Shown here in pieces: positions 6,644 through 33,816 of a DNA stretch of 53,763 nucleotides. How positions within the stretch are numbered: the first letter of the stretch is position 1; every line of letters begins with the position of its first letter. A program made the translations under genes and the position numbers. The stretch lies in contig CAYRHW010000007.1 in the NCBI GenBank assembly GCA_964424305.1, forward strand, positions 1-53,763, in the 5' to 3' direction. The notes beneath the pieces are model-generated. The model was given only the letters and a program-made list of their open reading frames with translations. It made no database searches and was not told where the DNA came from. The DNA is from an uncultured Candidatus Saccharibacteria bacterium. GTDB lineage: Bacteria; Patescibacteriota; Minisyncoccia; Minisyncoccales; Staskawiczbacteraceae.

Positions 6644-8263
6644 ATGCAAAGATTCATATTCGTAGCTGGCGGAGTAATGAGTGGAGTTGGTAAGGGCATA
6701 GCCACTGCCTCAATCGGAAAAGTACTACAAAGCAAGGGGTATTCAGTCACAGCGATGAAAATCGACCCCTATATCAACGTCGACGCTGGAACCATACGGC
6801 CAACCGAACATGGGGAGGTTTTTGTTACCGAAGATGGAACTGAGTGCGACCAGGACCTTGGAAATTACGAGAGATTCCTGAATATCAATATTTATGATAC
6901 AAACTATATAACAACTGGCCGAGTGTATCTCCATGTAATTCAAAAGGAAAGGAATATGGAATACAATGGCGAAGATGTTGAAGTAGTTCCAGATATTCCG
7001 CTAGAAGTTATTAGGAGAATAAAACTGGCCGCAAAAACCACCAAAGCCGACTTTATATTAATTGAGATCGGAGGAACCGTTGGGGAATACCAAAACATAC
7101 TGTTTATTGAAGCAGCTAGAATGTTGCGCATTCAGGAACCTAAAAATGTACTTTTCTTCTTAGTGAGCTATCTTCCAATTCCTAACAAGATTGGCGAGAT
7201 GAAAACTAAACCAACGCAGTATGCCACTAGATCATTAAATGCTACCGGGATCCAACCAGATTTTCTACTTTGTCGTAGTGCGGTCCCAGTTGATCAAAGG
7301 CGCAAAGAAAAACTATCCCTATTTTGTAATATTGAAGAGGAGTGCATTATTTCAGCTCCCGACATCGATTCCATCTACGATGTTCCTGTAAATTTTGACA
7401 ATGAAAAACTGGCCGAGAAAATACTTCGTAAATTTGGAATGAAGGTTAAAAAGAAGGATATGGTAGATTGGAGAAAATTATCGAAAAAAATCAAAAATCT
7501 TAAAAATGAAGTGAAGATAAGCATAGTCGGAAAATATTTTAACACAGGTGATTTTACATTATCCGACTCGTACATCTCGGTCATTGAGGCTATAAAACAT
7601 GCCGCCTGGGCTAATAACAGAAAACCCATTATTAAATGGGTAAATTCGGAAGAATTAGAAAAAAATCCGGAATTATTGAAGGAATTAAAAAAGTCTGACG
7701 GGATAATCGTGCCAGGAGGATTTGGCAATAGGGGAGTGGAGGGGAAAATAAAGGCAATTGAATTTTGTCGTAAAAATAAAATCCCATTTCTAGGATTATG
7801 TCTTGGCCTTCAGCTTGCCGTAATTGAATTTGCGAGAAACGTTGTTGGGATTAAAGACGCAACATCAAGAGAATTTGATAAAAACGCCAAAAATCCTGTA
7901 ATAGATATAATGCCAGAACAAAAGGTTCTGCTAAAGGAGAGGAAGTATGGTGCGACGATGAGATTGGGCGCCTATGATTGTAAACTTAGCCCTAAAACAA
8001 AAAGCTTCAAAGCCTACGGTTCTGCAAATATATCCGAACGTCACAGACACCGCTATGAATTGAACAATGATTATCGAGAAATATTAGAAAAAAAAGGAAT
8101 GACCCTAGCTGGGGTCAATCCTCAAAAAGATTTAGTAGAAATAATAGAGCTACCGAATCATCCTTTTTTCGTAGCTACTCAATTCCATCCAGAATTTAAA
8201 TCTCGCCCACTATCCCCACATCCTTTATTCAGGGAATTTATTAAGGCGAGCTTAAAAAAATAG
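6644..8263 (+). CDS. pyrG: CTP synthase
   Basis: GGVMSGVGKG, KIDPYINVDAGT, GLCLG, ERHRHRYE, QFHPEF. Confidence 0.99.
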   Translation: MQRFIFVAGGVMSGVGKGIATASIGKVLQSKGYSVTAMKIDPYINVDAGTIRPTEHGEVFVTEDGTECDQDLGNYERFLNINIYDTNYITTGRVYLHVIQKERNMEYNGEDVEVVPDIPLEVIRRIKLAAKTTKADFILIEIGGTVGEYQNILFIEAARMLRIQEPKNVLFFLVSYLPIPNKIGEMKTKPTQYATRSLNATGIQPDFLLCRSAVPVDQRRKEKLSLFCNIEEECIISAPDIDSIYDVPVNFDNEKLAEKILRKFGMKVKKKDMVDWRKLSKKIKNLKNEVKISIVGKYFNTGDFTLSDSYISVIEAIKHAAWANNRKPIIKWVNSEELEKNPELLKELKKSDGIIVPGGFGNRGVEGKIKAIEFCRKNKIPFLGLCLGLQLAVIEFARNVVGIKDATSREFDKNAKNPVIDIMPEQKVLLKERKYGATMRLGAYDCKLSPKTKSFKAYGSANISERHRHRYELNNDYREILEKKGMTLAGVNPQKDLVEIIELPNHPFFVATQFHPEFKSRPLSPHPLFREFIKASLKK

Positions 8264-8536
8264 TTACTTTACGTTTACAACGCTCACTACTTTTGTAGAG
8301 CCGTTGAAATTCTTTTTTGTTTTCTTAGTAAAACTAATTATGCCATCTTTCATGGCGTAGATTGTATCGTCTCCCGCTCGCTTTACATTTTTACCAACAG
8401 TAAATTTTGCCCCACGTTGTCGGACAATAATTTCTCCTTTTTTAACTATTTCCCCGGCATAGGACTTAATTCCCAATCTTTGAGAATTAGAATCTCTGCC
8501 CAACCTAGACGAACCCGACGATTTAGATGTTGACAT
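8264..8536 (-). CDS. rpmA: 50S ribosomal protein bL27
   Basis: GRDSNSQRLGIK, IIVRQRG, GDDTIYA motifs. Confidence 0.97.
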   Translation of the reverse strand: MSTSKSSGSSRLGRDSNSQRLGIKSYAGEIVKKGEIIVRQRGAKFTVGKNVKRAGDDTIYAMKDGIISFTKKTKKNFNGSTKVVSVVNVK

Positions 8537-8570
8537 GGTATTATCAGATAAGTATTAATATATAATGTAC

Positions 8571-8732
8571 ATGTTAGCTAAATTTACGGAGATTGTCAAT
8601 AAACACAGGAAAGACGCTACCCTGGGGATTATCGTCTTTTTGCTTATGTTGCTCGCATTCTCAATGGGATATATAACAGCAAAATATCGACCAACCCAAC
8701 CAATTCAATTTATTGATAATCAGAATAAATGA
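8571..8732 (+). CDS. Small single-TM protein (53 aa, not in the ORF track)
   Basis: MLAKFTEIVNKHRKDATLGIIVFLLMLLAFSMGYITAKYRPTQPIQFIDNQNK; TATAAT just upstream; stop overlaps next ATG (ATGA). Confidence 0.7.
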   Translation: MLAKFTEIVNKHRKDATLGIIVFLLMLLAFSMGYITAKYRPTQPIQFIDNQNK

Positions 8733-9667
8733 AAGTAGCAATTATTGGCGCCGGCACCTCTGGGCTATACATCGCCCACAAATTAGCAAAAAAAGGTCAC
8801 GAAGTGACTGTTTTTGAAAAAAACGATTCCATTGGGAATAAAATATGTTCCGGCCTATTCTCCGAGAGAATCTTAGCCTTTGTACCCGAATCAGAACCCC
8901 TTATCCAAAATCGGATAAATTCTGTTTTGATAAACTTTCCCAGAAAATCGATAGAGGTGTCCTTTTCTAAACAGTTTTTGGTAATGGATCACTCGAAACT
9001 TGATCATCTTTTAAGCGATTTATGCCGTAAAGTTGGCGTAAAGATTGTCCTGGGGAATAAGGTTTCAAATATACCCACGGATTTTGACCGGGTAATTGGC
9101 TGTGACGGCGCTGAGTCTGTCACAAGGAAGCAACTAGGGGGTAAGGAGCCTAGTTTACGACTAGGGATACAAGGATTTGTGCCCTTACAGACTTCGGAAA
9201 CTACTCAAGAAAACTTTGTTGAAGCGTGGCCATGTAAAAATGGCTTCCTATGGAAAATTCCTCGGGGCGATAAGTTGGAATATGGCGTAATAACCGATAT
9301 AAATACAGCCCACAGGACATTCGTTGATTTTGTAAAAGAAAAAAACATTTTAGTAAACAATATTAAGGCAAAATTGGTCCCGCAAGGATTAATTATTCCA
9401 GATAATAACAAAATAACACTTTGCGGTGATGCCGCAGGATTAACTAAGCCATGGTCGGGTGGGGGAGTGGTATGGGGATTTAGAGCAGCAGATATTCTAA
9501 TAGAAAATTTTCCGAATTTTAATAGCTATAGGAGAAAAACAAAAAGATTTTTCATAAAAAAAATAATATTTTCTAAAATTGCGGTCACCCTTGTATATTT
9601 AGTTGGATTTACTATTCCTTGGATGCTCCCGAAGAGAGCAAAGATGGAATCTGACTTTTTACTTTAG
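8729..9667 (+). CDS. FAD-dependent oxidoreductase, geranylgeranyl-reductase-like
   Basis: IIGAGTSG Rossmann motif, KICSG, GCDGAES, WKIP, GDAAGLTKPWSGGG. Confidence 0.85.
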   Translation: MKVAIIGAGTSGLYIAHKLAKKGHEVTVFEKNDSIGNKICSGLFSERILAFVPESEPLIQNRINSVLINFPRKSIEVSFSKQFLVMDHSKLDHLLSDLCRKVGVKIVLGNKVSNIPTDFDRVIGCDGAESVTRKQLGGKEPSLRLGIQGFVPLQTSETTQENFVEAWPCKNGFLWKIPRGDKLEYGVITDINTAHRTFVDFVKEKNILVNNIKAKLVPQGLIIPDNNKITLCGDAAGLTKPWSGGGVVWGFRAADILIENFPNFNSYRRKTKRFFIKKIIFSKIAVTLVYLVGFTIPWMLPKRAKMESDFLL

Positions 9668-9731
9668 ATTGACTTAATGTAGTATTATTGTAGAATATAG
9701 TAGGTCCGGTCCTTTGACAGGAGAAACTCCC

Positions 9732-10250
9732 ATGCCAGAACCAACCGTCGCAAGATCGGTTTTTATTGGCCCAGGCAAGATAATACAAGTACATGTCAAC
9801 GGGCATGTATACCCGAGTATCCTTGCCAACGCAGGAAAAACCTGGGTTCTTATCGCCTCACTTTCAACGGGTGAACCTATAACTCTAACGGAATCTTCGC
9901 TTATCTCAATTTTGAAAAAAACCATCGACCCAATGACTACTAATGGATTCCGACACTTCCTTTTCATATTCGGATTAACTCTTCAAGATGTATTCGATGA
10001 TAACCCCGAAAAAACCACGACATTTATTGAAAAGGTTTGTGAAGAGCTATCCGAGAATGTCAAAACGCAAGAGCAAATCGGGCCACACACGCTAAGAAAC
10101 TTGAGCGAATTAGTGGCCTCTCTTGTTTCAGAGGCTAGCCAAGCGTTAAAGAAAGTTATCGAAACAACTATCACGAAATTACAGGGCCTGCCAAAAGGTC
10201 CGCCAATGTCTGCTACGAGACCCAAACAGTCGCGCAAACAAGGCCATTAA
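9732..10250 (+). CDS. Hypothetical protein
   Basis: ATG after AGGAGA; promoter TTGACT-N16-TAGAAT at 9669-9696. Confidence 0.65.
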   Translation: MPEPTVARSVFIGPGKIIQVHVNGHVYPSILANAGKTWVLIASLSTGEPITLTESSLISILKKTIDPMTTNGFRHFLFIFGLTLQDVFDDNPEKTTTFIEKVCEELSENVKTQEQIGPHTLRNLSELVASLVSEASQALKKVIETTITKLQGLPKGPPMSATRPKQSRKQGH

Positions 10251-10281
10251 TAATCAGGCGACACAGGAAGGAGATATGCGG

Positions 10282-10800
10282 ATGCCAAGAATCACCATCT
10301 GCGGAATGAATTCTGTCAGTGCCAAGGCTTTACGTCATCAACTGTTTAGTGATCCAAACCTGTTTTTTGGAAGAAGATGGATTTTCCAGGTTGTTATCGA
10401 GATTTTGGAGAGCAACGTCAGCAGTTTATGTGAGGATCAGCCATTCCTGATCCTAGCAGATACTCCAGGCGACCCGGCCCACGATGAGATAACCGACATT
10501 CTCCGCACAAACGGGTTTGAATTTGAAGAACTAGCGCTGAAAGCATTCAATGCAAAACCAGGAAGACTGAATCGCCAATCGGTCTTTATCGAAATTTGGG
10601 AAAGGCCCCTTGGAGTCACAGAGACTGAATTGGTCACAATACTCGCTGAAAAACTGGGCGATGAAAAAACGAATAAAGTGGCAAGAACTCTACTAAAACG
10701 TTTAGTCGACGATAGGGCGGTCCGGAAAGACCCCGATAATAAGTACAGAGCTGATATAGAGCAACTCCGCATTTTTCTATCGCGGCCACAGCCGCGTTAA
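10282..10800 (+). CDS. Hypothetical protein: possible Pro1 tautomerase-like N-domain plus C-terminal winged helix
   Basis: SD AAGGAG spacing favours MPRITICG start; C-terminal GVTETELVTIL...ARTLLKRLVDDRAVRKDPDNKY is wHTH-like. Confidence 0.6.
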   Translation: MPRITICGMNSVSAKALRHQLFSDPNLFFGRRWIFQVVIEILESNVSSLCEDQPFLILADTPGDPAHDEITDILRTNGFEFEELALKAFNAKPGRLNRQSVFIEIWERPLGVTETELVTILAEKLGDEKTNKVARTLLKRLVDDRAVRKDPDNKYRADIEQLRIFLSRPQPR

Positions 10801-10845
10801 CTAAATTTATAAAGAAAAACCACGCACCACGCGAGGTTTCTTTTT

Positions 10846-11334
10846 TTATAGCGTTCCCGCTAGATCCTGTGCCGCCTTAATCCATTTAGAGTTTCTCGGT
10901 TTATTTTTAAATTTAATTGAGACTTTTTGGATATCTATCAATTTTCGGAAGTCGCCTTTCCCCCAGTCCGAAAAAATCTTGCCTTTGTTTCTAAAAATAA
11001 TTTCTACTCCTTCGGCCCAAAGATCAAAATCCTTCTTTTTATTACCCACTAATTTATTAGAATTGAAATATGGAATTACAGCGTCTTTTAACTCGCCGAT
11101 GTTTTGGACTGAATATCTCGCCTTACTTTTTATTAAATGAATATTTCCACAGCCAAAAATACTTTTCACTTTTTCTAGAATATCTGGGCTATTAATTATT
11201 ACAAATTGCGCCTTCCATCGGTGGTAAATGGGAGAGTTTAATCTATTGCGCTTAACATCCTGTCTAAACTGAAGATCGAAGCATCCGTCTGAATTAATAA
11301 CATTTTTCACATTAATAGTTTCTTTTTTTACCAT
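10846..11334 (-). CDS. Free-standing LAGLIDADG homing-endonuclease-like protein
   Basis: INSDGCF (degenerate LAGLIDADG helix), ILEKVKSIFGCGNI, VIPYF...L.G.KKKDFDLW; start moved to MVKK. Confidence 0.85.
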   Translation of the reverse strand: MVKKETINVKNVINSDGCFDLQFRQDVKRNRLNSPIYHRWKAQFVIINSPDILEKVKSIFGCGNIHLIKSKARYSVQNIGELKDAVIPYFNSNKLVGNKKKDFDLWAEGVEIIFRNKGKIFSDWGKGDFRKLIDIQKVSIKFKNKPRNSKWIKAAQDLAGTL

Positions 11335-11361
11335 AGTATTTATGAATATGTTGCTTATCTT

Positions 11362-11374
11362 ATATTGTGCGACA
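11362..11374 (-). repeat. 13-bp repeat TGTCGCACAATAT, copy A (inverted)
   Basis: Exact intergenic match to copies at 13373 and 13980. Confidence 0.9.
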
Positions 11375-11391
11375 CTTATATTATACCACAA

Positions 11392-12333
11392 TCACTCCTT
11401 TAGAGGATGGTACTTTCTTAAGGATTTTTCAGCATAACGATCAGATGCATGAACATATCTAGTTGTAGTCTCCAACGATTCGTGGCCAAGCAGGATCTGT
11501 ATAGCAGCTGGATTTGCACCGCTTTCGGCTAAATAGGTGGCAAAAGCATGGCGGATTGAATGGCAGGATAGGGGGAGATTAATTCCCAGCAATTCTCGGT
11601 ATTTTTTTACTCTTTCTTGTAAATAATTTGCGGATATATGATGATCTTTACTCGCCATATTTTTCCCCCTATTGGGCACAAATAAATACTGCGACTCATC
11701 TAAACCCCTTATTTCAAGATAATCCTTTATGTGTCGCTCGGCCCTCTTAGTAAGGTAGGCGAATCTTTCCTTTCTGCCCTTACCGCGAATAAAAACTCTC
11801 CCGCTTTTGTCAATCTGTTCTTTTCTTAAATTTAATAACTCTGAGATACGCATTCCCGTAGAAAACAGAATTTCCAACATGGCTCGGTTACGGACAGCCA
11901 CCGTTTTATTTTTTTCAAACCTACTAGGCGACTCGATAAGAGTAATAATTTCAACAAGTTCGGAAATCCGGGGATGCTTTTTGGTAGTTTTTACCAGTTC
12001 GATGCTAGTTGGGGCAATTGGCGAATTGTAATCCATTTTAATCAGAAACTTTAGATATGACCTAAGCGCAGATAGCATTCTATTTATTGAAAAAGTGTTT
12101 AATTTTTTCATTGCTTTTTCTTTCCCCGCCGTTTGCCTATCCTGCGAGATAAGATATGCCTTATAATTTAAAATCGTTTTTTTATCGGCTTTCGCGAATT
12201 CAATGCTTGCATCATTTAAAAAATCCTCAAAAACCCCTAAGTCTCTCTCATAATTATAAATAGTTTCGTCGGAATAATTGTTTGCCCTTAAGTTGAGCAA
12301 ATAATCATCGAGCTGGGGTAGAAATATTTTCAT
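11392..12333 (-). CDS. Tyrosine recombinase, XerC/XerD family, catalytically intact
   Basis: N-terminal SAM-like domain; R (TGMRISE), K (GKGRKER), HSIRH, LGH, Y (TTRY) all present. Confidence 0.96.
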   Translation of the reverse strand: MKIFLPQLDDYLLNLRANNYSDETIYNYERDLGVFEDFLNDASIEFAKADKKTILNYKAYLISQDRQTAGKEKAMKKLNTFSINRMLSALRSYLKFLIKMDYNSPIAPTSIELVKTTKKHPRISELVEIITLIESPSRFEKNKTVAVRNRAMLEILFSTGMRISELLNLRKEQIDKSGRVFIRGKGRKERFAYLTKRAERHIKDYLEIRGLDESQYLFVPNRGKNMASKDHHISANYLQERVKKYRELLGINLPLSCHSIRHAFATYLAESGANPAAIQILLGHESLETTTRYVHASDRYAEKSLRKYHPLKE

Positions 12334-12404
12334 ATATTATGTTTCGAGTTTAATAATGATGTTGTTATTTGGGATTAAAAGAAAAACACAATTTCTCATT
12401 GTCA

Positions 12405-13031
12405 TTAAATTATACCAAACCTTAAATAATGATACGGTGCCAAGCTGTCAGATCTCTTTTCGAGATACTCGTTGATAGGGGAATATATATTTTCGGGTAG
12501 TTCATGCAGACAGCCCTTATTTAGACCACATATTCGACGAACCTTAAAGCCAGTTGAAATTATTACGTTTAAAATGGCCCTATCTCTTAACCCAATTATA
12601 TTGCTGGAATCTGGGGCACCTAAGAGCGACTGGATACCCTTACCATCTAAATACAGGTCGCTTTTGGGGCATTTATTGACCCTAGGAAGGGTTATTTTAC
12701 TAGGAACGAGGGAAACTATCCCCTGGACCCCAAAATAGCCCAAAAGGGCCCTCAAAACGATCAAATAGTAGTGCTGGGTGTTCGGCTTAAGAAATTTGCC
12801 CGTGTTATGGTTAAGAGTAGGGGATAGTAAGTAATTCTTATAATCTGCGATGTGTTTTTCATTTAATTCGTGAGGTTTTAAATCTTCTAAATTATTTTGC
12901 TTCAACCAAACTAAAAATTTTTCTAAAAATCTTTTATAATTTTCTTGTGTTGCGCTAGAAAGACCCACTGCACGACAATAGGCGATAAAGTTTGGAAGGC
13001 TCTCTATAATCGTCTTATTAGATTGGTTCAT
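12405..13031 (-). CDS. Truncated Xer-like protein (core-binding domain only, catalytically dead) or pseudogene
   Basis: GLSSATQENY, LIVLRALLGY, LRDRAIL; catalytic R replaced (STGFK); ends before HxxR, H and Y. Confidence 0.8.
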   Translation of the reverse strand: MNQSNKTIIESLPNFIAYCRAVGLSSATQENYKRFLEKFLVWLKQNNLEDLKPHELNEKHIADYKNYLLSPTLNHNTGKFLKPNTQHYYLIVLRALLGYFGVQGIVSLVPSKITLPRVNKCPKSDLYLDGKGIQSLLGAPDSSNIIGLRDRAILNVIISTGFKVRRICGLNKGCLHELPENIYSPINEYLEKRSDSLAPYHYLRFGII

Positions 13032-13372
13032 GTATATAAACTGAGTGTAAGAGTTATTATACTCATATTACTATATTAATAATAAACCTCTTAAATGTGG
13101 TGTCAAGAGACTTCTCCGGGCGATACGGGCCAGCCCACATTCTTCCTTTCTTTTATTATGGATATATTATTAAAAATATTTTTATTATAATCCCCTATAG
13201 AATATAAAATATTTATTTAAAATATTTCTTATTTTCCCTGCATCCTTGCCCACTCTTCATAACCACTCCCCTAACGAATTATGTCAGTATTTCCAAAAGG
13301 GACTAAAAACAGCCTTTTGGCTGGTTTGAGGGTATTAGGGATCGGTTTAACCACGCTGTGGGACCCTTTATT

Positions 13373-13385
13373 TGTCGCACAATAT
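13373..13385 (+). repeat. 13-bp repeat TGTCGCACAATAT, copy B
   Basis: Exact intergenic copy. Confidence 0.9.
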
Positions 13386-13461
13386 CAATATATTACCATT
13401 TAATTAAACGGAAAGGGCGGCCATTGCTGACCGCCCCGAGGTTCCGATAGATAGAACCCCC

Positions 13462-13887
13462 TTAGTACTGAGGCCCGAGAGCCGCTTTCCGTCGCACTTG
13501 TTGAAAGCGCGTCTCCCAGTCCTTCCAGACCTGCCATTTGATCGGCGTGCCGTCTGGAGCACGTTCGACGACGTTGGCCGTGTTGGCCTTGATGACCTCT
13601 ACGGACTTACCTGTCATCTCGGCAATGACATAATTCAGGGTCCCGTCGAATTCCTCGTCGACGAAAGTCACCCGATCATGTCCCCAATGTCCCACAACGG
13701 TGAAGTCCAGGTGCCCCGGAAAGCTGCTCTTCGCCTCTTCGGCGAAGACCCGCACGGGTTTGTTGTCCTGGTCAAATGCCTTCTCCGCTTGAGCAGTCTT
13801 CTGAGATGCCTTCCTCATGACGACACCGCAGATAGTCCCCACCACGATCACGAACGCGATGGTCGTTACTTTCCTACTCATCTTCAT
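13462..13887 (-). CDS. Hypothetical membrane-anchored or exported protein (GC-rich cargo gene)
   Basis: N-terminal TM, DEEFDG loop; own consensus promoter and terminator (about 13411-13438); lies between repeat copies B and C. Confidence 0.8.
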   Translation of the reverse strand: MKMSRKVTTIAFVIVVGTICGVVMRKASQKTAQAEKAFDQDNKPVRVFAEEAKSSFPGHLDFTVVGHWGHDRVTFVDEEFDGTLNYVIAEMTGKSVEVIKANTANVVERAPDGTPIKWQVWKDWETRFQQVRRKAALGPQY

Positions 13888-13946
13888 AATTCTTCCCTTT
13901 CAAAAGAAGATCGGCCAGTAAACATCTTAATTTTAACGATGCACAT

Positions 13947-13975
13947 ATTATATCACTGTTGTCTTATTGTGTCAA
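13947..13975 (-). promoter_or_regulatory. Consensus sigma70 promoter of the cargo gene
   Basis: TTGACA-N17-TATAAT on minus strand. Confidence 0.8.
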
Positions 13976-13979
13976 CATA

Positions 13980-13992
13980 TGTCGCACAATAT
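13980..13992 (+). repeat. 13-bp repeat TGTCGCACAATAT, copy C
   Basis: Exact intergenic copy, 4 nt from the cargo gene -35 box. Confidence 0.9.
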
Positions 13993-14046: not shown

Positions 14047-14382
14047 TTATGGGGTAACCTCAGGTGGCTTACTGCCCAGTATGCTATTAAAAATCCCGGA
14101 GAAATAATTCTTTGTTTTCTGCCAGATGTTAAGGGTTGCTTCCTTCGCCTGCCCTTTTATTTCCTCCTTAGCTATATTCTGCCTTTTCTCTATTTCTGAT
14201 GTAACTGATTTAAAAATATGTTTATTCCAGAAATCTACACACTGATTCCAAATGCCGATCCCCCACCCCTCTATCTTCTGCCACATATCTCTCCCGAGTT
14301 TTTCGAAAAACGGTTGTTGTCCCAAAACTAATACTAAAAATACAAGAATGATAAAAATAACGTATTTTAATGCTCCGAACAT
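14047..14382 (-). CDS. Hypothetical membrane-anchored protein
   Basis: N-terminal TM plus amphipathic helices; last gene of the gltX-mur block. Confidence 0.75.
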   Translation of the reverse strand: MFGALKYVIFIILVFLVLVLGQQPFFEKLGRDMWQKIEGWGIGIWNQCVDFWNKHIFKSVTSEIEKRQNIAKEEIKGQAKEATLNIWQKTKNYFSGIFNSILGSKPPEVTP

Positions 14383-27513: not shown

Positions 27514-28104
27514 TTAATTTAATTTATAGCTTTCTAAAATTTTGTACTCTGGACCAGTTTTCTTCAAAATACTTTCCATTAATTCAACTGATCCAACCTC
27601 AAAAGAATGTTCTATACTCTCTTCCACTTCGGGTCTTTCTTCGGGTTCAATTCTCCGCCATTCTAACTCCTTAATTCTTGCTAGGGTGATATGAGGAATA
27701 ATTTCTCGGTTCTCGGCCCTAATCTTCACCCCCGATAGATTTGCCAATGTTTTACAAAGATTGTCGCACAATGTGATAAACTCTTTGTTGCTTTCTCCGC
27801 TCGCCCAAATCATTCTCGGAATGCTATTCACTTTAATCCCCCCCTTCCCCAAATTAGAAAAATTGTAGCCAATACTTTTTACCCCGATATTAAATCGTTT
27901 GTAACCTTTTGTAGCCCTTTCAATTGTTTTATGAAGCAGCGGTAAGTTATTATCATCGGCATCTCCGATAAAGACCGCGGTAATGTGTAAATTCTCTCTG
28001 GGAACCCATTTTGCTGGCACATCTTGATGATTATTCTGATAATCTAACAATGTTTCCTTAATATCCTCGGGAAGATTTATCGCAATAAAAATTCTATGCT
28101 TCAT
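27514..28104 (-). CDS. thpR: RNA 2',3'-cyclic phosphodiesterase (2H family)
   Basis: RIFIAI, NLHIT and PHITLAR motifs. Confidence 0.93.
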   Translation of the reverse strand: MKHRIFIAINLPEDIKETLLDYQNNHQDVPAKWVPRENLHITAVFIGDADDNNLPLLHKTIERATKGYKRFNIGVKSIGYNFSNLGKGGIKVNSIPRMIWASGESNKEFITLCDNLCKTLANLSGVKIRAENREIIPHITLARIKELEWRRIEPEERPEVEESIEHSFEVGSVELMESILKKTGPEYKILESYKLN

Positions 28105-28235
28105 ATTAATTATCCTACCAAAAAATTCTAAGCTAAACAATAATTGACAAATCCAAATTAATACCGTAGAAATAAGATAGGACGTTCACATTTTCATATT
28201 TTCTAAATACTCAAAGATATCAGAATGGAGGTACC

Positions 28236-28613
28236 ATGAACGGTAACGATATTAAAAAGGGATCACTTGTAATCGTCATCGACAGAGAAAGCACACCGCC
28301 TCGCTTTTGCTGGGGTTTAGTGCTCACACGATTTCCAAGTGGTGACAATTACGATGTACAGACTGGGGAATCCCCGAAACAGAAAAACATTTTCTCAGGA
28401 GACAAATTAATCCTTGTTATCCAAACTGAAAAAAACTTCGCAAACCCACTTGAGGCGGTTGAACATTACAAAAACGATATTCTTCTCGAAATCACCCTCA
28501 TTGCTTTCACCAGCCGAGAGCTCGCCGAACTAAAGCGTCTAAAAACGCGGATAGAGCGGAAGCGCAGAAGCTGGCTTGCAAGAGGTGTATCAAGATTACT
28601 CCGCCGAGTTTAA
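28236..28613 (+). CDS. Hypothetical protein (SH3/KOW-like N-terminus, helical C-terminus)
   Basis: GGAGG SD, TTGACA upstream, terminator at about 28615-28637. Confidence 0.65.
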   Translation: MNGNDIKKGSLVIVIDRESTPPRFCWGLVLTRFPSGDNYDVQTGESPKQKNIFSGDKLILVIQTEKNFANPLEAVEHYKNDILLEITLIAFTSRELAELKRLKTRIERKRRSWLARGVSRLLRRV

Positions 28614-28658
28614 GGGCCCAACACGTTGGGCTTTTTTCATTAGAGTGATAATATATAG

Positions 28659-29333
28659 ATGCCTATGATAAATACAAACCTTGCTAAAATCTTTAAGGAG
28701 ATCGCCGATCTTCTAGAATTGAAGGGAACACCATTTAAGCCCTCTGCCTATAAAAAGGTGGTTCGTATTTTAGAAAACTCAGAGGTTGATATCTACCAAT
28801 TATATAAAGAAAAAGGGATCAAGGGCGTTCGATCCATAAAAGGAATCGGCCCAAGCATTGCGAAAAAAATTGAGGAATATGTTAAGAAAGGAAGAATTAA
28901 ATACCACGAGGAATTGAAAGAAGAAACTGCCATAAGACAAATTGTTACCTATTACTTCGAAACCAAGGGACTGTCCTTGCAAGAATTAAAAGAAAATGCT
29001 AAAAAAAGAAACATTATCTACTCTCGGTTTACAAAACCAGCCAAGCAATTATTAGAACTAGCTGGTTCTGTAGAAAAAGCCAAGAGGGCGATGAAAACAG
29101 TAGCCGAATGGGCAAATACTCGGAAGCTAGACTACACAATTGAAACAGTCTTTAAAAAATGGCTTGAACTAGACCGACTAAAACCCAAAGAAGTTGTTAA
29201 AAAACCATTCTATAAAAACGACCCAATGGTCTGGTCAGAAAACAAAAAAAAGTGGTACGTAATAAACAAGTACAGCGAGTGGCTAGAATATTGCGGCAAA
29301 GAAGCAGAAATAGAATGGAGAGAAATTAAATAA
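28659..29333 (+). CDS. DNA polymerase X N-terminal HhH domain fused to an unknown domain
   Basis: N..LAKIFKEIADLLELKG.PFK..AY and IKGIGPSIAKKIEEY..G; no polymerase palm follows. Confidence 0.85.
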   Translation: MPMINTNLAKIFKEIADLLELKGTPFKPSAYKKVVRILENSEVDIYQLYKEKGIKGVRSIKGIGPSIAKKIEEYVKKGRIKYHEELKEETAIRQIVTYYFETKGLSLQELKENAKKRNIIYSRFTKPAKQLLELAGSVEKAKRAMKTVAEWANTRKLDYTIETVFKKWLELDRLKPKEVVKKPFYKNDPMVWSENKKKWYVINKYSEWLEYCGKEAEIEWREIK

Positions 29334-29347
29334 GATAATATAAAAAC

Positions 29348-29917
29348 ATGTTAACACACTCAGACTTAAGACCTGGTACAAGATTTATACTTGATAACCA
29401 GCCATACGAGGTTTTAGAAGCCATGGCGATGAAAATGGCTCAACGCAGGCCAGTAATTCAAAGTAAAATAAAAAACTTGATTACAGGAAACGTTTTAGAA
29501 AGGAACTTCCAACAGGGAGATGTTTTCGACGAGGCCGAATTAGTGAAGATCGGCGTTAAATACCTATACAACAACAAAGGGAACTATTTCTTCTGCGAAG
29601 AGAAAGATCCATCGAAACGATTTTCCTTAAGCGAATCCCAGACTGGCGTGGGGGCAAGATTTTTAAAACCAAACGAAGTTATCGACGGAATATATTTCGA
29701 CGAAAAGATTATTAATGTATCTGTACCAATAAAGGCACAACTAAAAGTTAAGCAATCCCCACCAGGAATTAAGGGTGATAGGGCCCAGGGTGGAACAAAA
29801 GCGGTTGTCCTAGATGGTGGCGCAGAAGTTAACGTGCCACTATTCATTGAGGAAGGAGATGTGGTGGAGATAAACACGGAACTTGGGCAATATGTGAAGA
29901 GGGTTGAAAAAGAATAA
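29348..29917 (+). CDS. efp: Elongation factor P
   Basis: DLRPG, KIKNLITG, PGIKGD, VPLFIEEGD...NTELGQYVKR. Confidence 0.96.
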   Translation: MLTHSDLRPGTRFILDNQPYEVLEAMAMKMAQRRPVIQSKIKNLITGNVLERNFQQGDVFDEAELVKIGVKYLYNNKGNYFFCEEKDPSKRFSLSESQTGVGARFLKPNEVIDGIYFDEKIINVSVPIKAQLKVKQSPPGIKGDRAQGGTKAVVLDGGAEVNVPLFIEEGDVVEINTELGQYVKRVEKE

Positions 29918-29985
29918 AGACATTACACAAAAGACGCCCGGGGGTGTCTTTTGTGTTGTTTGAGCAACTAGTTAATAGAATGGGA

Positions 29986-32900
29986 TTAAAAACTTTTCCC
30001 AATTATCTCATTCAATTTAACCCTCGTCCCGTTGCCAACGAATCCCGTACTCTTAATGGTATAGCCAGTAATAGCCGAAATTGCTGCTTTGTATTTGTCC
30101 TGGAAACATTTTACTCCTGCCAGGGTAGACGGCCCGAAATAGTTAGTGTTACCTAGCCCAGAGACACAACCCTCTGAGGCCAATATGATTTTAAGTTGGA
30201 TCACGTCAGCATGCCTCATTCCGAAGTAGAGATTTTTCAAAAATATAAACAGGCCAGAGTTATCCGAGTTGTCTATTATTGATGATCCTTTGTTAAATGT
30301 GATTGTGTCCAATACAATCGAGGAAGATTGTCCGTATTGGGTATAGAATTTGGCATAGACTGTTTTTGTCCCACTACCTGCCGATAGCGTCCAGTCCTTT
30401 GTAGTAACATATGGTTCTTGGATAGCGTTTTGAAAATCTGCATTATTCGATAGAACCATTCGTACGGTATCTACCCCACCCCTAAGGGTTAAAACAACAT
30501 TCTGAATACTAGTTGTTGGTGTACCACCATTGATTATCACGCCGAATCCACCGCTGGGAGTGATTGGAGGCATATATGCCCCAGTTGGAAGGCCTCCACC
30601 GCACGAACCGCCGAAACTAGCTGAAACAGAAATATTTGTTGTCACATTTGTGTCTGTTCTTGGGTTTTGAGTAGAATTGTCGCTCCACTTAACAAAAGAA
30701 AAACAACTATTAGGCACAGCTGTTACTGATGTGCCACTATTGCCCGAACCGACGGTTTGGGAAGACGAACCGGAGATAGATCCGTTGGAATCGGATGAAT
30801 ATGTAAGAGAATATATGTTCACGCCAATCGTGTATGTTTTTGTTGTTGTATCCTGTGCTGTAACTACAACGGTAACTGTATTTGACCCGACGCTCAGTGG
30901 TATTGAACCAGATGCTGAACCGGAACTAACTGTCGTGCCGTTAACCGTGACTGTCGCATTGGCCTGGTTAACTGTCGGGGTTACGGTGATGCTGGTGACT
31001 CCATTACCAACGCTATCGGTATAGGAAGTGGTTGCTGATGAAAATGTGGGGCTCAAGGTGCCCGAGCTTACTGCAAGATTGCTGAGGGTGGCGTCGGAGC
31101 TCAGGGTGGTAGCTAATGTATACGTCGCTCTATCAAAAAGGTATCCTGTTGAAGAGTTATCTCTGGCTTCAATTGTGACACTTGTTGTTGTGGCTGTTGT
31201 CGGTGTTCCGGAGATAACGCCAGTTGAAGTATTTAATGACAGCCCCGATGGCAAAGAACCAGAATAAATACTGTATGCTTGGTTTAATCCCTGAGTGCGT
31301 GTAACGCTGATCGGCTGAGAATAGGATGCTCCGATCATACCCGAAGGAAAAGATGCTGTGGTTATGTGGATGAAATTAAATTGCAGAACGCGATACTGAC
31401 GCAACTCATAGTTATACATTACGTTATTAACTGGGTCAAAGGCGTGTGGAGATTCAAGACGATAAAACGAGCTTTGCGAGGTGCCCGATCCATTACTGGT
31501 CCAGTCGGCCTGACCAATTACCTCTCTTGCTGGAGCATAATTAAATGAACTTGTAGCGCCAGCTGGAACGTCCCAAATCATAACCCTGTGGCCGTCCATA
31601 TCACCAGCAAAAAGCTGATTTGTGGCCGAGTTATAATTTAGGTCGTCTATACTACCAGTTCCACTTTGAGTGGTCAACACACCAGATGAAGTAAAGTCTG
31701 GCTGGCCGAGAACGAATATTGCGTTTCTTCCGTTGGCGTTGTCGCCATTCGGAACACTGTAGGCCGTTATCCTATCACCGCTCCAGGAGCTAACAAATAA
31801 TCTTGAATTTACATGGTCATATGCTATGCCAACGACGGCTCCATAAAACCCGCTTTGCGTTTGGGCAGATGCTTTTGAAGTAAAATTTGTTTGGCCAATA
31901 ACAAAAAGTGCGCTTCTACCATTAGTAACATTATCGCTGTTTGAGACATTAAAAGCCAATACCCGTCTATTGTTTTGGTCGGCAACAAACAGGCGTTGAT
32001 TTATCGAGTCATAATCCATATTATCTGGGGCGGTAAATCCACTCTGCGTGGTGGCGGAATTATATGAAGTAAATGCTGTTGGACCAGCGGGCTGCCCAAT
32101 CTCAAACATTGCCGCTTCACCATTTACAATCGTAGTTGGATTAACATTAAATACCAAAATACGGTTTTCGTTGCCAAGAGCAACAAAAAGTCTTGAATTA
32201 TCACTATCGTAAGCAAGATTGACGGTGCCCGTGAATGTACTAGAGGTTGTTGTTCCTGGCCCCGCAGAGTTTATGTCACTGGCCCCAAGAACATTTATTG
32301 GCGTACGCGAAGCAATATTATTAAAGGAATCCAGTTGGAAAATGAGAATACGACGGTTGTTTTCCTCAGAAACAAACAATCTATGATTGACGGTATCTAG
32401 AGCAATACTATTTAAATAGTCGAACCCGGCTGAATTAACGCCAAACGCCCCGTTCGCCGTCGTATTTAGAAACGTAGAGGTTGAAAGCGCGCCGGTGATA
32501 TCATAGTGACCAAAAACATAGGAGGCGTTTTCTCCATTGATGCTTGATGTGGCAGTTGCGGAAACGGGAAAAACCATAATACGATTGTACAGAGTATCGG
32601 CAACAAAAAGATGTAAATTTACTGAGTCATAGGCTAAGCCACTGCTTTTGGTCGTAGCGATGTCACAAAGATTTATTGCATTATTAAGATCGGCATTGCC
32701 CCCTGAAGTAAAGTCTGCTTGCCCGAGTTCGAATATCGCGTTCTCTCCGTTAATCTCAACCCCTGCTCCGGCCGGAACACTGAAGGCCATTACACGGTTG
32801 ACATCATCTGAATTAGAATCAGAAACAAATAACCGGGAATTAGCTGAATCATAAGTTGTACCTATCACAAAAGATAATCCATTTTGAGTTGTATTTTGAT

Positions 32901-33816
32901 CAGCGGTAATAAAGTCTGGTTGACCGAGGACAAAAATGGCATACCTGTAAAGGGCGTTATCATTATTCGGTACGCTGAAGGCCATCACCCGATAATTAAA
33001 TCCGTCACCAACAAAAAGACGAGAGTTGGTTTGGTCATAGGCTAAACCCATCGGACGATAAAGATCCCTCTGGGTGGTGCCAGAGATTTTGTTGGTCCAT
33101 GTTGATTGACCGATTTCAAAAAGAGCGTTCTCTCCGTTAATCTCAACCCCTGCTCCAGCTGGAACACTGAAAGCCACCACACGGTGATTACCGAAGTCGG
33201 CAACAAAAAGCCGCGAATTTGTTACATCATAGGCGATGCCGAGCGGTAGAAAAAGGGTACTTTGAGTATGGCCTCCAGCAATAGAATTAAAATCTGTTTC
33301 ACCGAGAACGAAAATGGCGCTTCTTCCGTTGGCGTTATCTCCGTTGGCAACATTAAAAGCTAATACACGACTGGCATTGTAATCAGAAACAAATAACCGG
33401 GAGTTAGCTGAATCATAGGCTACGCTAGCAGGATAATAAAGTCCACTTGGGCCAACGCTCTGTCCACTTGAGGTAAAATCTGTTTGACCAATAACAAATA
33501 GCGGAGTATTTGAAACAATGTTGTCATTTGAATCAATGGAATATACTAATACACGATTATTGTTGCTGTCGACAACAAACAACCGATGATTTATTGAATC
33601 GTAGGCTACGTCGCTCGGGCCATTAAACCCGGAACCGCTGACACCGGGTCCGTTGTTTGGAGCGCTCTTTGTCCAAACGACATTACCACTAGCGTCTGTC
33701 TGCCCTAGAAGGTTTGTGGCGTTGTAAAGAGTGGCGTGAGCTGGAACGGCAAAAACAAAAAACGCGAAGAAGATTGCGAGGAAAAGAAATATTGTTTTGT
33801 TTAAAATTGAAAACAT
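29986..33816 (-). CDS. Large secreted surface protein: NHL/beta-propeller repeats, Ig-like and cadherin-like domains, C-terminal peptidoglycan-binding-like domain
   Basis: Signal peptide, repeated AYD...RLFV.D..N.RV and (VL/I)GQ.DFT, LPSGLSL...TGVISGTPT, SSDATLS.L...L.P.F, YFGP.T...V..FQ. Confidence 0.9.
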   Translation of the reverse strand: MFSILNKTIFLFLAIFFAFFVFAVPAHATLYNATNLLGQTDASGNVVWTKSAPNNGPGVSGSGFNGPSDVAYDSINHRLFVVDSNNNRVLVYSIDSNDNIVSNTPLFVIGQTDFTSSGQSVGPSGLYYPASVAYDSANSRLFVSDYNASRVLAFNVANGDNANGRSAIFVLGETDFNSIAGGHTQSTLFLPLGIAYDVTNSRLFVADFGNHRVVAFSVPAGAGVEINGENALFEIGQSTWTNKISGTTQRDLYRPMGLAYDQTNSRLFVGDGFNYRVMAFSVPNNDNALYRYAIFVLGQPDFITADQNTTQNGLSFVIGTTYDSANSRLFVSDSNSDDVNRVMAFSVPAGAGVEINGENAIFELGQADFTSGGNADLNNAINLCDIATTKSSGLAYDSVNLHLFVADTLYNRIMVFPVSATATSSINGENASYVFGHYDITGALSTSTFLNTTANGAFGVNSAGFDYLNSIALDTVNHRLFVSEENNRRILIFQLDSFNNIASRTPINVLGASDINSAGPGTTTSSTFTGTVNLAYDSDNSRLFVALGNENRILVFNVNPTTIVNGEAAMFEIGQPAGPTAFTSYNSATTQSGFTAPDNMDYDSINQRLFVADQNNRRVLAFNVSNSDNVTNGRSALFVIGQTNFTSKASAQTQSGFYGAVVGIAYDHVNSRLFVSSWSGDRITAYSVPNGDNANGRNAIFVLGQPDFTSSGVLTTQSGTGSIDDLNYNSATNQLFAGDMDGHRVMIWDVPAGATSSFNYAPAREVIGQADWTSNGSGTSQSSFYRLESPHAFDPVNNVMYNYELRQYRVLQFNFIHITTASFPSGMIGASYSQPISVTRTQGLNQAYSIYSGSLPSGLSLNTSTGVISGTPTTATTTSVTIEARDNSSTGYLFDRATYTLATTLSSDATLSNLAVSSGTLSPTFSSATTSYTDSVGNGVTSITVTPTVNQANATVTVNGTTVSSGSASGSIPLSVGSNTVTVVVTAQDTTTKTYTIGVNIYSLTYSSDSNGSISGSSSQTVGSGNSGTSVTAVPNSCFSFVKWSDNSTQNPRTDTNVTTNISVSASFGGSCGGGLPTGAYMPPITPSGGFGVIINGGTPTTSIQNVVLTLRGGVDTVRMVLSNNADFQNAIQEPYVTTKDWTLSAGSGTKTVYAKFYTQYGQSSSIVLDTITFNKGSSIIDNSDNSGLFIFLKNLYFGMRHADVIQLKIILASEGCVSGLGNTNYFGPSTLAGVKCFQDKYKAAISAITGYTIKSTGFVGNGTRVKLNEIIGKSF

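Follow-up and report, generated by a model that had tools for sequence, protein, structure and literature searches.

The 53,763-nucleotide stretch analysed here (the window), contig CAYRHW010000007.1 of an uncultured Candidatus Saccharibacteria bacterium (assembly GCA_964424305.1), contains three exact copies of a 13-nucleotide motif, TGTCGCACAATAT, grouped around a gene for a Xer-type tyrosine recombinase. These copies are the local members of a lineage-wide polar array of short sites that is terminus-proximal, densest at xer, and reversed in orientation where the GC skew switches. A conserved LAGLIDADG-fold protein encoded beside xer probably reads the site, and the evidence leans towards the two taken together, that is, towards an array and a LAGLIDADG reader that acts in an orientation-dependent manner. 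By analogy, the system may be a polar fork trap, a tentative third convergent analogue beside Tus-Ter and RTP-Ter. By function it is a variant of the known polar terminus systems, and by its components it is new.

Copy A occupies positions 11362-11374 on the minus strand, and copies B (13373-13385) and C (13980-13992) lie on the plus strand; an exact scan of the window reproduced the positions and strands given in the initial annotation, and the list of open reading frames (ORFs) agrees with it that all three copies (3/3) are intergenic. Copy A, the last member of a left-hand, minus-strand group, sits between the xer stop codon (11392), which it follows by 17 nt, and the likely ATG of the LAGLIDADG-like gene (11334). 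It is located 5 nt downstream of the predicted extended -10 element of that gene, a consensus match (TGGTATAAT, minus strand, 11380-11388) that is present as originally described. Copy B, an exact match like the others, opens the right-hand, plus-strand group and lies 3' of the terminator hairpin of a GC-rich ORF. Copy C, the second member of that group, abuts the opposite-strand -35 of a TTGACA-17-TATAAT promoter (13970-13975 and 13947-13952) directed at the same ORF; its TTGACA is 4 nt away on the minus strand, in agreement with the earlier description. The window holds six matches to the motif at two or fewer mismatches, compared with a mean of 1.10 in shuffled sequence, and six were reached in 0 of 100 shuffles. 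Across the 672-kb genome (nine contigs, ~40% GC, the window being contig C7), the full 13-mer is exact at A, B, and C only. Its 11-mer core, TGTCGCACAAT, occurs at three further places, for a total of six copies: C4:1133, C5:9284, and 27762-27772 on the plus strand of the window, where it belongs to the right-hand group and has an orientation consistent with the surrounding negative GC skew. Copies A, B, and C share AT at positions 12-13, where the other three genomic copies differ, and the flanks of B and C are unrelated in sequence. The 8-mer TGTCGCAC is always found inside the 11-mer in this genome (6/6).

The motif is not private to the xer locus, around which the initial annotation had organised it; scanning of the genome and its relatives returned a real, family-wide signal that forms a terminus-proximal array. 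The family set comprised 79 genomes including that of the window, mostly fragmented metagenome-assembled genomes of kin that are not independent, and the reversed motif served as control. The 11-mer occurs in 78 of these 79 genomes, with 938 copies vs 6 matches of the reversed control, and a variant with T at position 8, TGTCGCATAAT, contributes 349 copies vs 12 control matches. In a first set of 40 relatives, the 11-mer was present in all 24 same-family genomes (~0.5-0.8 Mb) at up to 23 copies each, with none for the reversed control, and in 6 of 16 genomes from other families of the order at one to four copies each. Genome sizes in the family, when rounded, span ~0.4-1.0 Mb.

Aligned as a logo, 128 distinct exact sites reveal a longer unit of ~15 bp, about wT-TGTCGCACAAT-AAA, or wT-TGTCGCA(C/T)AAT-AAA when both variants are written in. 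The unit is asymmetric, includes a partial dyad (TTGT-N3-ACAA), and has no conserved partner arm within 40 nt in the logo. Among 62 sites sampled with their flanks, 36 are intergenic and 26 lie inside ORFs of at least 80 aa, 22 of these being antisense to the gene; the genes concerned include some that read, from their translations, as release-factor-like and enolase-like. DnaA boxes, parS, LexA, NrdR, or another regulator box were set aside on grounds of consensus only, origin-type sites were excluded by position, the array being at the terminus and not at the origin, and a DNA uptake sequence was dropped because the copies are far too few and polar.

The motif also shows several local arrangements. 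One locus (L015, G014:C2:1309-1351) carries three head-to-tail copies with a 16-bp period (TGTCGCACAATATAAT x3), and pairs 19-60 bp apart are common beside xer (G014:C11:870/889/949, G012:C6:7593/7627, and G094:C14:16275/16310). In two genera, a copy abuts, on the opposite strand, the 3' end of a putative tRNA (G000:C4:1133-1143 in L023/L037, and L026 at G017:C1:70788), such that the tRNA strand, its end being placed by eye, reads ...GGCTCA-TTGTGCGACA. Genera g14 and g16 use T at position 8 throughout their arrays (18 T vs 2 C in G045, 20 vs 2 in G073, and 13 vs 2 in G068), the position being C in most other genera and A in the xer leader described below. On the fork-trap reading given below, such a concerted C-to-T change in some genera would record the co-evolution of a protein and its set of sites.

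The defining property of the array is its polarity. Of the 107 exact copies located on xer-bearing contigs in 16 genomes, 104 read minus to the left and plus to the right of xer; the three exceptions all lie less than 1 kb from xer, two of them 53-63 nt past the stop codon of the LAGLIDADG-like gene. In genomes with long contigs, the motif strand switches at one point per genome, the xer gene, and the orientation flips at xer in every checkable genome, which bears out the earlier suggestion that the motif is tied to the xer locus. Arrays of the T variant are polar as well (11/11 in G023, 15/15 in G045:C9, and 11/11 in G017:C1). A set of 64 loci collected via the LAGLIDADG gene, which overlaps the 16-genome set, gave 36/36 minus copies to the left of xer and 92 plus and 8 minus copies to the right. 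Site density rises toward xer, and among 30 family xer loci, 23 have a same-orientation copy 20-125 nt after xer and 19 have an opposite-orientation copy less than 1.5 kb upstream of it.

The flip point coincides with the switch in GC skew. In the 737,971-bp contig G022:C1, the cumulative G-C maximum falls at 195,386, a position that lies within xer (194,572-195,438) and is flanked by the innermost opposed copies, 194,491 (minus) and 196,089 (plus); the minimum is at 550,669, and dnaA, at 578.6 kb, lies roughly opposite xer. All 13 exact copies of this contig fall between 159.7 and 319.8 kb, and one-mismatch copies are concordant in 9 of 11 cases. Two-mismatch variants have no polarity there (77 vs 74) and were treated as background. 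The first ~9 kb of the window have positive skew and the sequence from ~10 kb onward negative skew, with the sign change at ~9-11 kb, and the cumulative G-C maximum at 9,723 is followed by a plateau to ~13.4 kb. Plus-strand genes end at 10800 and minus-strand genes start at 10846, so that transcription converges at 10.8 kb; the skew sign change and the convergent gene orientation delimit a replication-terminus zone at 8000-13400. The cumulative skew, proposed earlier as a check of terminus position, thus places the maximum at xer and the flip in G022:C1 and near them in the window. The xer gene of the window itself sits at the polarity flip and skew switch, its orthologs are at the flip in 5/5 relatives examined, and the two copies on other contigs of the same genome are in plus orientation in negative-skew DNA, as in the right arm of the window. 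Within that arm, positions 28000-33000 form a positive-skew island, which may be an inverted or oppositely transcribed block. The initial annotation had emphasised that A and B are inverted and B and C direct repeats; this geometry is real, and it arises because the array flip and two right-hand members fall in the window, making it an instance of the universal polarity flip rather than a local device. On each replichore, the same face of the site meets a fork travelling from origin to terminus.

The candidate reader of the array is encoded immediately downstream of xer. The gene at 10846-11334 (minus strand) encodes 162 aa from the ATG at 11334, and LAGLIDADG_1 is its sole Pfam domain (E 3.2e-12). 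An AlphaFold2 model (pLDDT 87.8) shows one alpha-beta-beta-alpha-beta-beta-alpha core, and the top Foldseek matches in the PDB are I-LtrI, I-OnuI, I-TnaI, I-CreI variants, and I-Vdi141I. Matches to the protein at E<=1e-10 are found in 72 of the 79 family genomes (70 of them strong) and in 15 of 16 genera, and the gene is free-standing at a fixed syntenic place near xer. In 16 of 18 loci, a same-orientation copy of the motif, exact or with one mismatch, lies 33-125 nt upstream of the ATG. The usual promoter layout is motif-N8-TGnTATAAT, with the motif over the -35, and in the window the motif instead follows the -10 by 5 nt. The catalytic acid of LAGLIDADG enzymes is replaced in 7 of 18 orthologs of the first set and in 18 of 69 of a larger set, in which the position could be parsed in all but 7 of 76 sequences; D or E occupies it in 51 orthologs, one of Y, S, G, A, V, N, T, I, or Q in the other 18, and D in the protein of the window. 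Meanwhile, 28 alignment columns are invariant among the orthologs, and the number of local sites per locus is equal with or without the catalytic acid (2.1 vs 2.06). The loss of the acid, the invariant columns, and the unchanged site numbers together fit a domesticated DNA-binding protein.

Two further features of this protein family are noted here as leads. A column in the beta3-beta4 turn has D in 0/12 T-dominant vs 29/39 C-dominant loci, although these residue groups are probably clades. At L077 (G019:C104), xer is followed by a tandem of two LAGLIDADG genes. One belongs to the conserved terminus type; the other combines a canonical VDGEG motif with an extra insertion and may be a paralogue that is still active.

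Copy number follows the presence of the gene. The 69 gene-bearing genomes have 5-37 copies (C and T variants combined; median 16), and genomes in which the xer locus is assembled and the gene was not found have 5 (G002), 2 (G006), 3 (G004), 4 (G042), and 0 (G074); a further genome, G001, in which the gene is broken by a stop codon, has 2. The difference is significant by a Mann-Whitney test among kin that are not independent (p = 2.8e-5), and four genera account for the losses. The 20 kb around xer in G074 contain no copy of the motif with any of the four bases at position 8. The genome G009 has the other Xer type and another dif candidate, yet retains 16 copies and the LAGLIDADG-like gene. 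Together with the pattern of losses, it indicates that the array tracks the LAGLIDADG-like gene and not the type of Xer.

The recombinase gene at the centre of the array, xer (11392-12333, minus strand), encodes 313 aa with a Pfam Phage_integrase domain (E 1e-37) and an N-terminal SAM-like domain. Among proteins of solved structure, E. coli XerD is the closest to it (E 2.8e-25), followed by a XerC-like protein, XerA, and XerH. Two xer-like genes had originally been proposed for this locus. The first is a complete tyrosine recombinase, while the second (12405-13031, minus strand, 208 aa) is only the remnant of a longer integrase-like gene: Pfam finds in it N-terminal SAM-like domains only, and it matches residues 11-207 of a 438-aa integrase-like protein of the same-genus genome G002, with ~195 internal residues missing. 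A full-length integrase-like gene (431-456 aa) precedes xer in G002, G009, and G006. The long protein of G002 (L134, G002:C16 8142-9461) has a sub-threshold match to the catalytic domain (25.6 bits vs a cut-off of 27.1) and a C-terminal extension of ~170 aa that belongs to no Pfam family; it may be an inactive Xer partner or something else.

Between copies A and B, at the flip and 9 nt upstream of the start codon of the remnant, a 28-bp element at 13040-13067 has the 11-6-11 layout of a recombination site: ACTGAGTGTAA GAGTTA TTATACTCATA. Eight of its 11 arm positions are inverted, it is unique in its genome at up to seven substitutions, and it is kept at the same place in G002 (3 differences), G009 (4), and G006 (6). 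Short pieces of contigs from other organisms match 13034-13065 alone. The element has the TAA-N6-TTA architecture, which is reported for archaeal dif in the relevant part of one source (PMC11840125). We consider it rather likely to be the dif site of the Xer type found in the window. It is unrelated in sequence to the 13-mers, and it is more likely than they are to be the recombination site of the local Xer. The surrounding gene order, gltX - ORF111 - xer - LAGLIDADG-like gene - convergent uppS (gltX and uppS by Pfam in relatives), is conserved. ORF111 (14047-14382, minus strand), a conserved 111-aa ORF, serves as the synteny marker, with blastp matches to an ORF of ~100-140 aa upstream of xer in the loci of 16 relatives. 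On the other side, positions 9714-10800, between the last conserved plus-strand gene and the LAGLIDADG-like gene, hold two ORFs (178 and 174 aa) without a Pfam family. This segment has no alignment to the same-genus genome G002, so that both flanks of xer are variable.

Xer proteins of the family fall into two types. That of the window is 72-90% identical to its counterparts in G002, G001, G009, and G006, and the typical type of most genera is 30-35% identical to it. Typical xer genes have a TTGACA-17-TATTAT-like promoter and, ~12 nt further on, a leader element consisting of YGTCGCAAAATGTWGGTAAA and variable bases (18/25 loci). The invariant left half of this leader, located between the xer promoter and start codon, is a one-mismatch variant of the motif, and neighbouring families have the exact 11-mer in the same place. 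The Xer type of the window is without the leader; a search of its genome for the 19-nt core gave nothing at up to three substitutions, and three matches with four substitutions look random. In leaders L079, L080, L096, and L010, the right half (GGTAAA-SCGNN) pairs with a downstream partner via changed bases, which gives a long hairpin in the xer 5' untranslated region. Rfam returned no match at E<=0.1 for 13 loci (47,946 bases), and the leader may be an uncharacterised RNA element that controls xer.

Several features suggest how such an array could act. The LAGLIDADG-like protein would descend from a homing endonuclease, would have been domesticated with loss of most of its catalytic activity, and would now bind the sites and repress its own promoter. 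Orientation would matter through protein-site complexes acting on something that moves one way along each replichore, and the complexes would then serve as orientation-dependent barriers, a fork trap that fixes termination at xer/dif. A fork trap is our first choice because the clusters are opposed, the reader gene lies at the terminus with a site in its promoter, and the protein is unrelated to known terminators. Searches for Tus (Pfam Ter, PF05472) and RTP (PF02334) gave no matches in five genomes each, with controls hitting E. coli and B. subtilis, and the SMC hinge (PF06470) was found in 0/21 family genomes and in 10/14 controls. The ancestor of the reader would have been a homing endonuclease that targeted a conserved xer-leader/dif sequence. 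The motif forms the strong half of the xer leader even in the absence of a LAGLIDADG gene, which suggests that an ancestral homing target lay there. The most specific version of the fork trap reading, a third such trap in which a homing endonuclease of xer-leader/dif was domesticated in an ultra-small lineage of Patescibacteria and 5-37 of its targets were seeded in two opposed groups that confine fork fusion to the dimer-resolution site of genomes lacking SMC, Tus, and RTP, is possible but on the whole doubtful.

A number of observations weigh against a fork trap read by the LAGLIDADG-like protein. Site numbers (median 16, maximum 37) exceed those of known fork traps, and the density near the terminus is guidance-like. 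The motif variant in the xer leader is present even in genomes and neighbouring families without the LAGLIDADG gene, and another factor, perhaps Xer, must therefore read at least that copy. Since 51 of 69 orthologs keep the catalytic acid, there is room for nicking or cleavage. Some copy-rich genomes have no detected gene (G094 with 23 copies, G072 with 16, G020 with 10, and G056 with 9). They were left out of the copy comparison as assembly gaps, and true loss in them would weaken the correlation: xer was not found in G020 and G056 either, the gene of G072 is cut by a contig end, and the contig of G094 ends 5.96 kb after xer, right past a tandem pair of copies like that in the promoter of the gene. 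The genome of the window, with six copies, is itself at the low end. The assignment of the reader is derived from comparisons of sequence, and rests on co-occurrence, position, and loss among non-independent kin. The partial dyad of the site would suit a homodimer, and dimerisation of the protein is putative; a structure prediction with two copies scored 0.01 vs a mark of 0.42, which gives no verdict and was used neither for nor against.

The main rival of the fork trap is guidance of FtsK, in the manner of FtsK-orienting polar sequences (KOPS). The sites would be read by FtsK directly or via a LAGLIDADG adaptor, and would steer or stop the translocase at xer/dif or mark the zone in which dif is active. 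In its favour, xer and the dif candidate mark the exact point at which polarity reverses, density climbs toward xer, and the site number (median 16) is more in keeping with guidance than with a trap. The FtsK encoded in the genome of the window, a 739-aa frame on contig C2, also has a gamma domain (PF09397, 102 bits). We nevertheless regard guidance as unlikely. The unit is 11-15 bp long and not an 8-mer, and its subwords never occur alone. Exact copies in G022:C1 are terminus-proximal only, rather than spread over both replichores, and copy number tracks the LAGLIDADG-like gene. Moreover, a site in the promoter of the reader's own gene is a hallmark of Tus and RTP, as described in a section of one report (PMC10331603).

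A second alternative assigns the sites to Xer itself, monomers of which would bind scattered copies without recombination and either unload SMC or concentrate Xer near dif. An 11-bp unit fits one recombinase arm, and the resemblance to such arms claimed in the initial annotation stands in so far as the invariant left half of the leader is one mismatch from the motif in 18 of 25 typical xer loci, with the exact 11-mer there in neighbouring families; the claim fails in that no partner arm accompanies the 128 sites. There is also a precedent, in that XerD is presented as a sequence-specific SMC unloader at the terminus in passages of two reports (PMC12322038, PMC11840125). The absence of an SMC hinge from all 21 family genomes leaves nothing to unload and makes SMC unloading unlikely. 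Genomes with xer and without the LAGLIDADG-like gene have 0-5 copies, and both G009 and the genome of the window combine a different Xer and dif candidate with the same motif. An array of Xer half-sites is improbable.

The motif could also be merely the operator of a repressor, LAGLIDADG-like or other, with a regulon comprising xer, the repressor gene, and other promoters. An operator had been offered as the alternative in the initial annotation, and its observational part holds: copy A lies in the promoter and 5' region of the LAGLIDADG-like gene, as do copies in 16 of 18 loci, over the -35 in most and just after the -10 in the window, a variant copy follows the xer -10 by ~12 nt, and copy C abuts a -35. 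A regulon alone gives no account of the polarity, since orientation follows the replichore and not the adjoining gene. It leaves unexplained the terminus-proximal confinement and the flip at the skew maximum, and 26 of 62 sites lie inside ORFs of at least 80 aa, 22 of them antisense. We therefore consider this explanation very improbable. Equally hard to sustain is a selfish element, in which an active free-standing homing endonuclease would have the copies as its targets or as cleavage-resistant variants, without benefit to the host. The fold, the catalytic acid kept in 51/69 orthologs, the constant presence of a copy of the presumed target beside the gene, and its bracketing by inverted copies in some loci (4 of the 8 exceptions in the 64-locus set) would all be expected of such an element. 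The gene is, however, fixed in one syntenic place in 15 of 16 genera and strongly conserved despite loss of the catalytic residue in 18/69, 5-37 targets in the chromosome would make enzymatic activity self-destructive, and the polarity would again have no explanation.

The idea from which the analysis departed, that Xer half-sites drive A x B inversion or B x C excision and capture of a cassette, is scarcely credible, because almost all genomes of the family show the same inverted and direct geometry around xer irrespective of the cargo, hundreds of copies are found within housekeeping genes or in the gaps between them (78/79 genomes carry the motif), the sites have no second arm, and a separate full 11-6-11 site exists at 13040-13067. 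An integron- or pdif-like platform does not fit single-arm sites in and between conserved genes either, with only B and C flanking lineage-specific DNA. What speaks for the idea is local: the full 13-mer is common to A, B, and C only, the other three copies differing at positions 12-13; B and C have unrelated flanks, which a crossover within a short core would produce; and these two copies bound a GC-richer stretch of 594 bp (13386-13979, 51% GC) that has no alignment with the same-genus genome G002 and probably represents a recent acquisition within the terminus zone. The stretch contains a 141-aa ORFan (13462-13887, minus strand; 55.9% GC vs 40.5% for the window) that is not a member of the array. 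As first annotated, this GC-rich gene has its own promoter (TTGACA-17-TATAAT, 13947-13975) and hairpin terminator (13417-13441), both confirmed from the sequence. It encodes an N-terminal hydrophobic segment, belongs to no Pfam family, and matched only itself among 5.8 billion proteins, of which near lengths were searched. A single capture event may have occurred here at a motif copy. Contigs assembled in Logan, the only form in which reads were consulted and one in which minority forms are invisible, show the reference arrangement alone and no joint at A, B, or C in X1 (one spanning contig) and X2 (three tiling contigs), two runs from which this DNA may derive, a weak test given that contigs drop rare forms. 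X3 and X4 cover parts of the locus, and the interval 13099-13824, uncovered there, is not evidence. Two apparent joints, one from 11484 to 13042 and one from 12267 to 13040, with sides of 24-26 nt and unlike letters between them, were rejected as rearrangements and read as other organisms that share short conserved pieces.

Returning to the polar array and its candidate LAGLIDADG reader, none of the papers listed by the literature searches brings LAGLIDADG together with the replication terminus and Xer, and none of those listed deals with dif or Xer of the Candidate Phyla Radiation. Apparently, the LAGLIDADG fold has never before been linked to a task at the terminus, and this kind of terminus system has not been described. 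To our knowledge, polar terminus systems are known in molecular detail only from the two unrelated cases of Tus-Ter and RTP-Ter. The array bears on the question of how termination is organised in most bacteria and how it is linked to dimer resolution, its flip point lying within a few hundred bases of the skew maximum and of xer in uncultivated genomes of ~0.4-1.0 Mb. The hypothesis is testable with purified protein and plasmids, with no need for culture, and the motif offers a cheap means to locate and orient terminus-proximal contigs in the fragmented assemblies of this group. The protein would also join WhiA as the second case in which a host has apparently co-opted a homing-endonuclease scaffold.

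In its use of the fold, the candidate reader resembles WhiA, which portions of several reports describe as a bacterial LAGLIDADG scaffold used as a transcription factor (PMC3781837, PMC3240954, PMC3384342) and, in another, as a homing-endonuclease domain linked to a helix-turn-helix domain (PMC11701221). WhiA provides the precedent for a homing-endonuclease fold that is kept for DNA binding rather than cleavage. The protein described here differs in that it consists of a single 162-aa LAGLIDADG domain without a helix-turn-helix, and in that its proposed sites form a terminus-centred polar set. With active LAGLIDADG homing endonucleases it shares the fold, as judged by Pfam, AlphaFold2, and Foldseek; unlike them, its catalytic acid is not invariant, and its gene is free-standing and syntenic rather than sporadic.

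The xer locus itself is comparable to XerS/difSL, XerH/difH, and archaeal XerA/dif. XerS is genetically linked to difSL, according to one study (PMC2731167), and here, too, xer lies at the terminus beside a candidate site, the element at 13040-13067 in the window and the leader in relatives. The 11-6-11, TAA-N6-TTA layout is likewise shared, as far as the part of the report that treats it goes (PMC11840125). Those systems are without a polar array or a LAGLIDADG partner, and recombination at the sites described here is putative. In B. subtilis, XerD-binding sites in the terminus reportedly unload SMC (Karaboja et al. 2021). As in that species, extra recombinase-type sites occur in the terminus region beside dif, the motif resembling the strong half of the leader. 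The family studied here differs in having no SMC hinge (0/21), and its array persists with a different Xer and decays on loss of the LAGLIDADG-like gene.

Among polar sequences, KOPS direct FtsK to dif, as outlined in part of one review of the field (PMC10331603), and architecture imparting sequences (AIMS) are 8-bp sequences, as stated in a passage of another report (PMC5993296). The array shares with KOPS and AIMS an orientation tied to the replichore, a switch at dif/xer, and a density that increases toward the terminus, and an FtsK gamma domain is encoded here as well. Whereas those are 8-bp sequences distributed over whole replichores, the sites of the array are 11-15 bp long, terminus-proximal, and track the gene of a separate protein. 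The closest comparison is with Tus-Ter of Escherichia coli and RTP-Ter of Bacillus subtilis, two polar terminus systems that are treated as convergent in the sections concerned of PMC10331603, each with two opposed clusters of polar sites and each autoregulated via a ter site in its own promoter. The family has no homologue of Tus or RTP, its candidate reader is LAGLIDADG-fold, and arrest at its sites is putative. The sites are also more numerous here (median 16, up to 37, in genomes of ~0.4-1.0 Mb), and xer lies between an innermost pair that is ~1.6-2 kb apart. As in both known systems, polar sites form two opposed clusters round the terminus (104/107 concordant), their number is of the same order, in the tens, and the gene of the candidate reader, whose role is inferred, is located in the terminus region and carries a site in its promoter.

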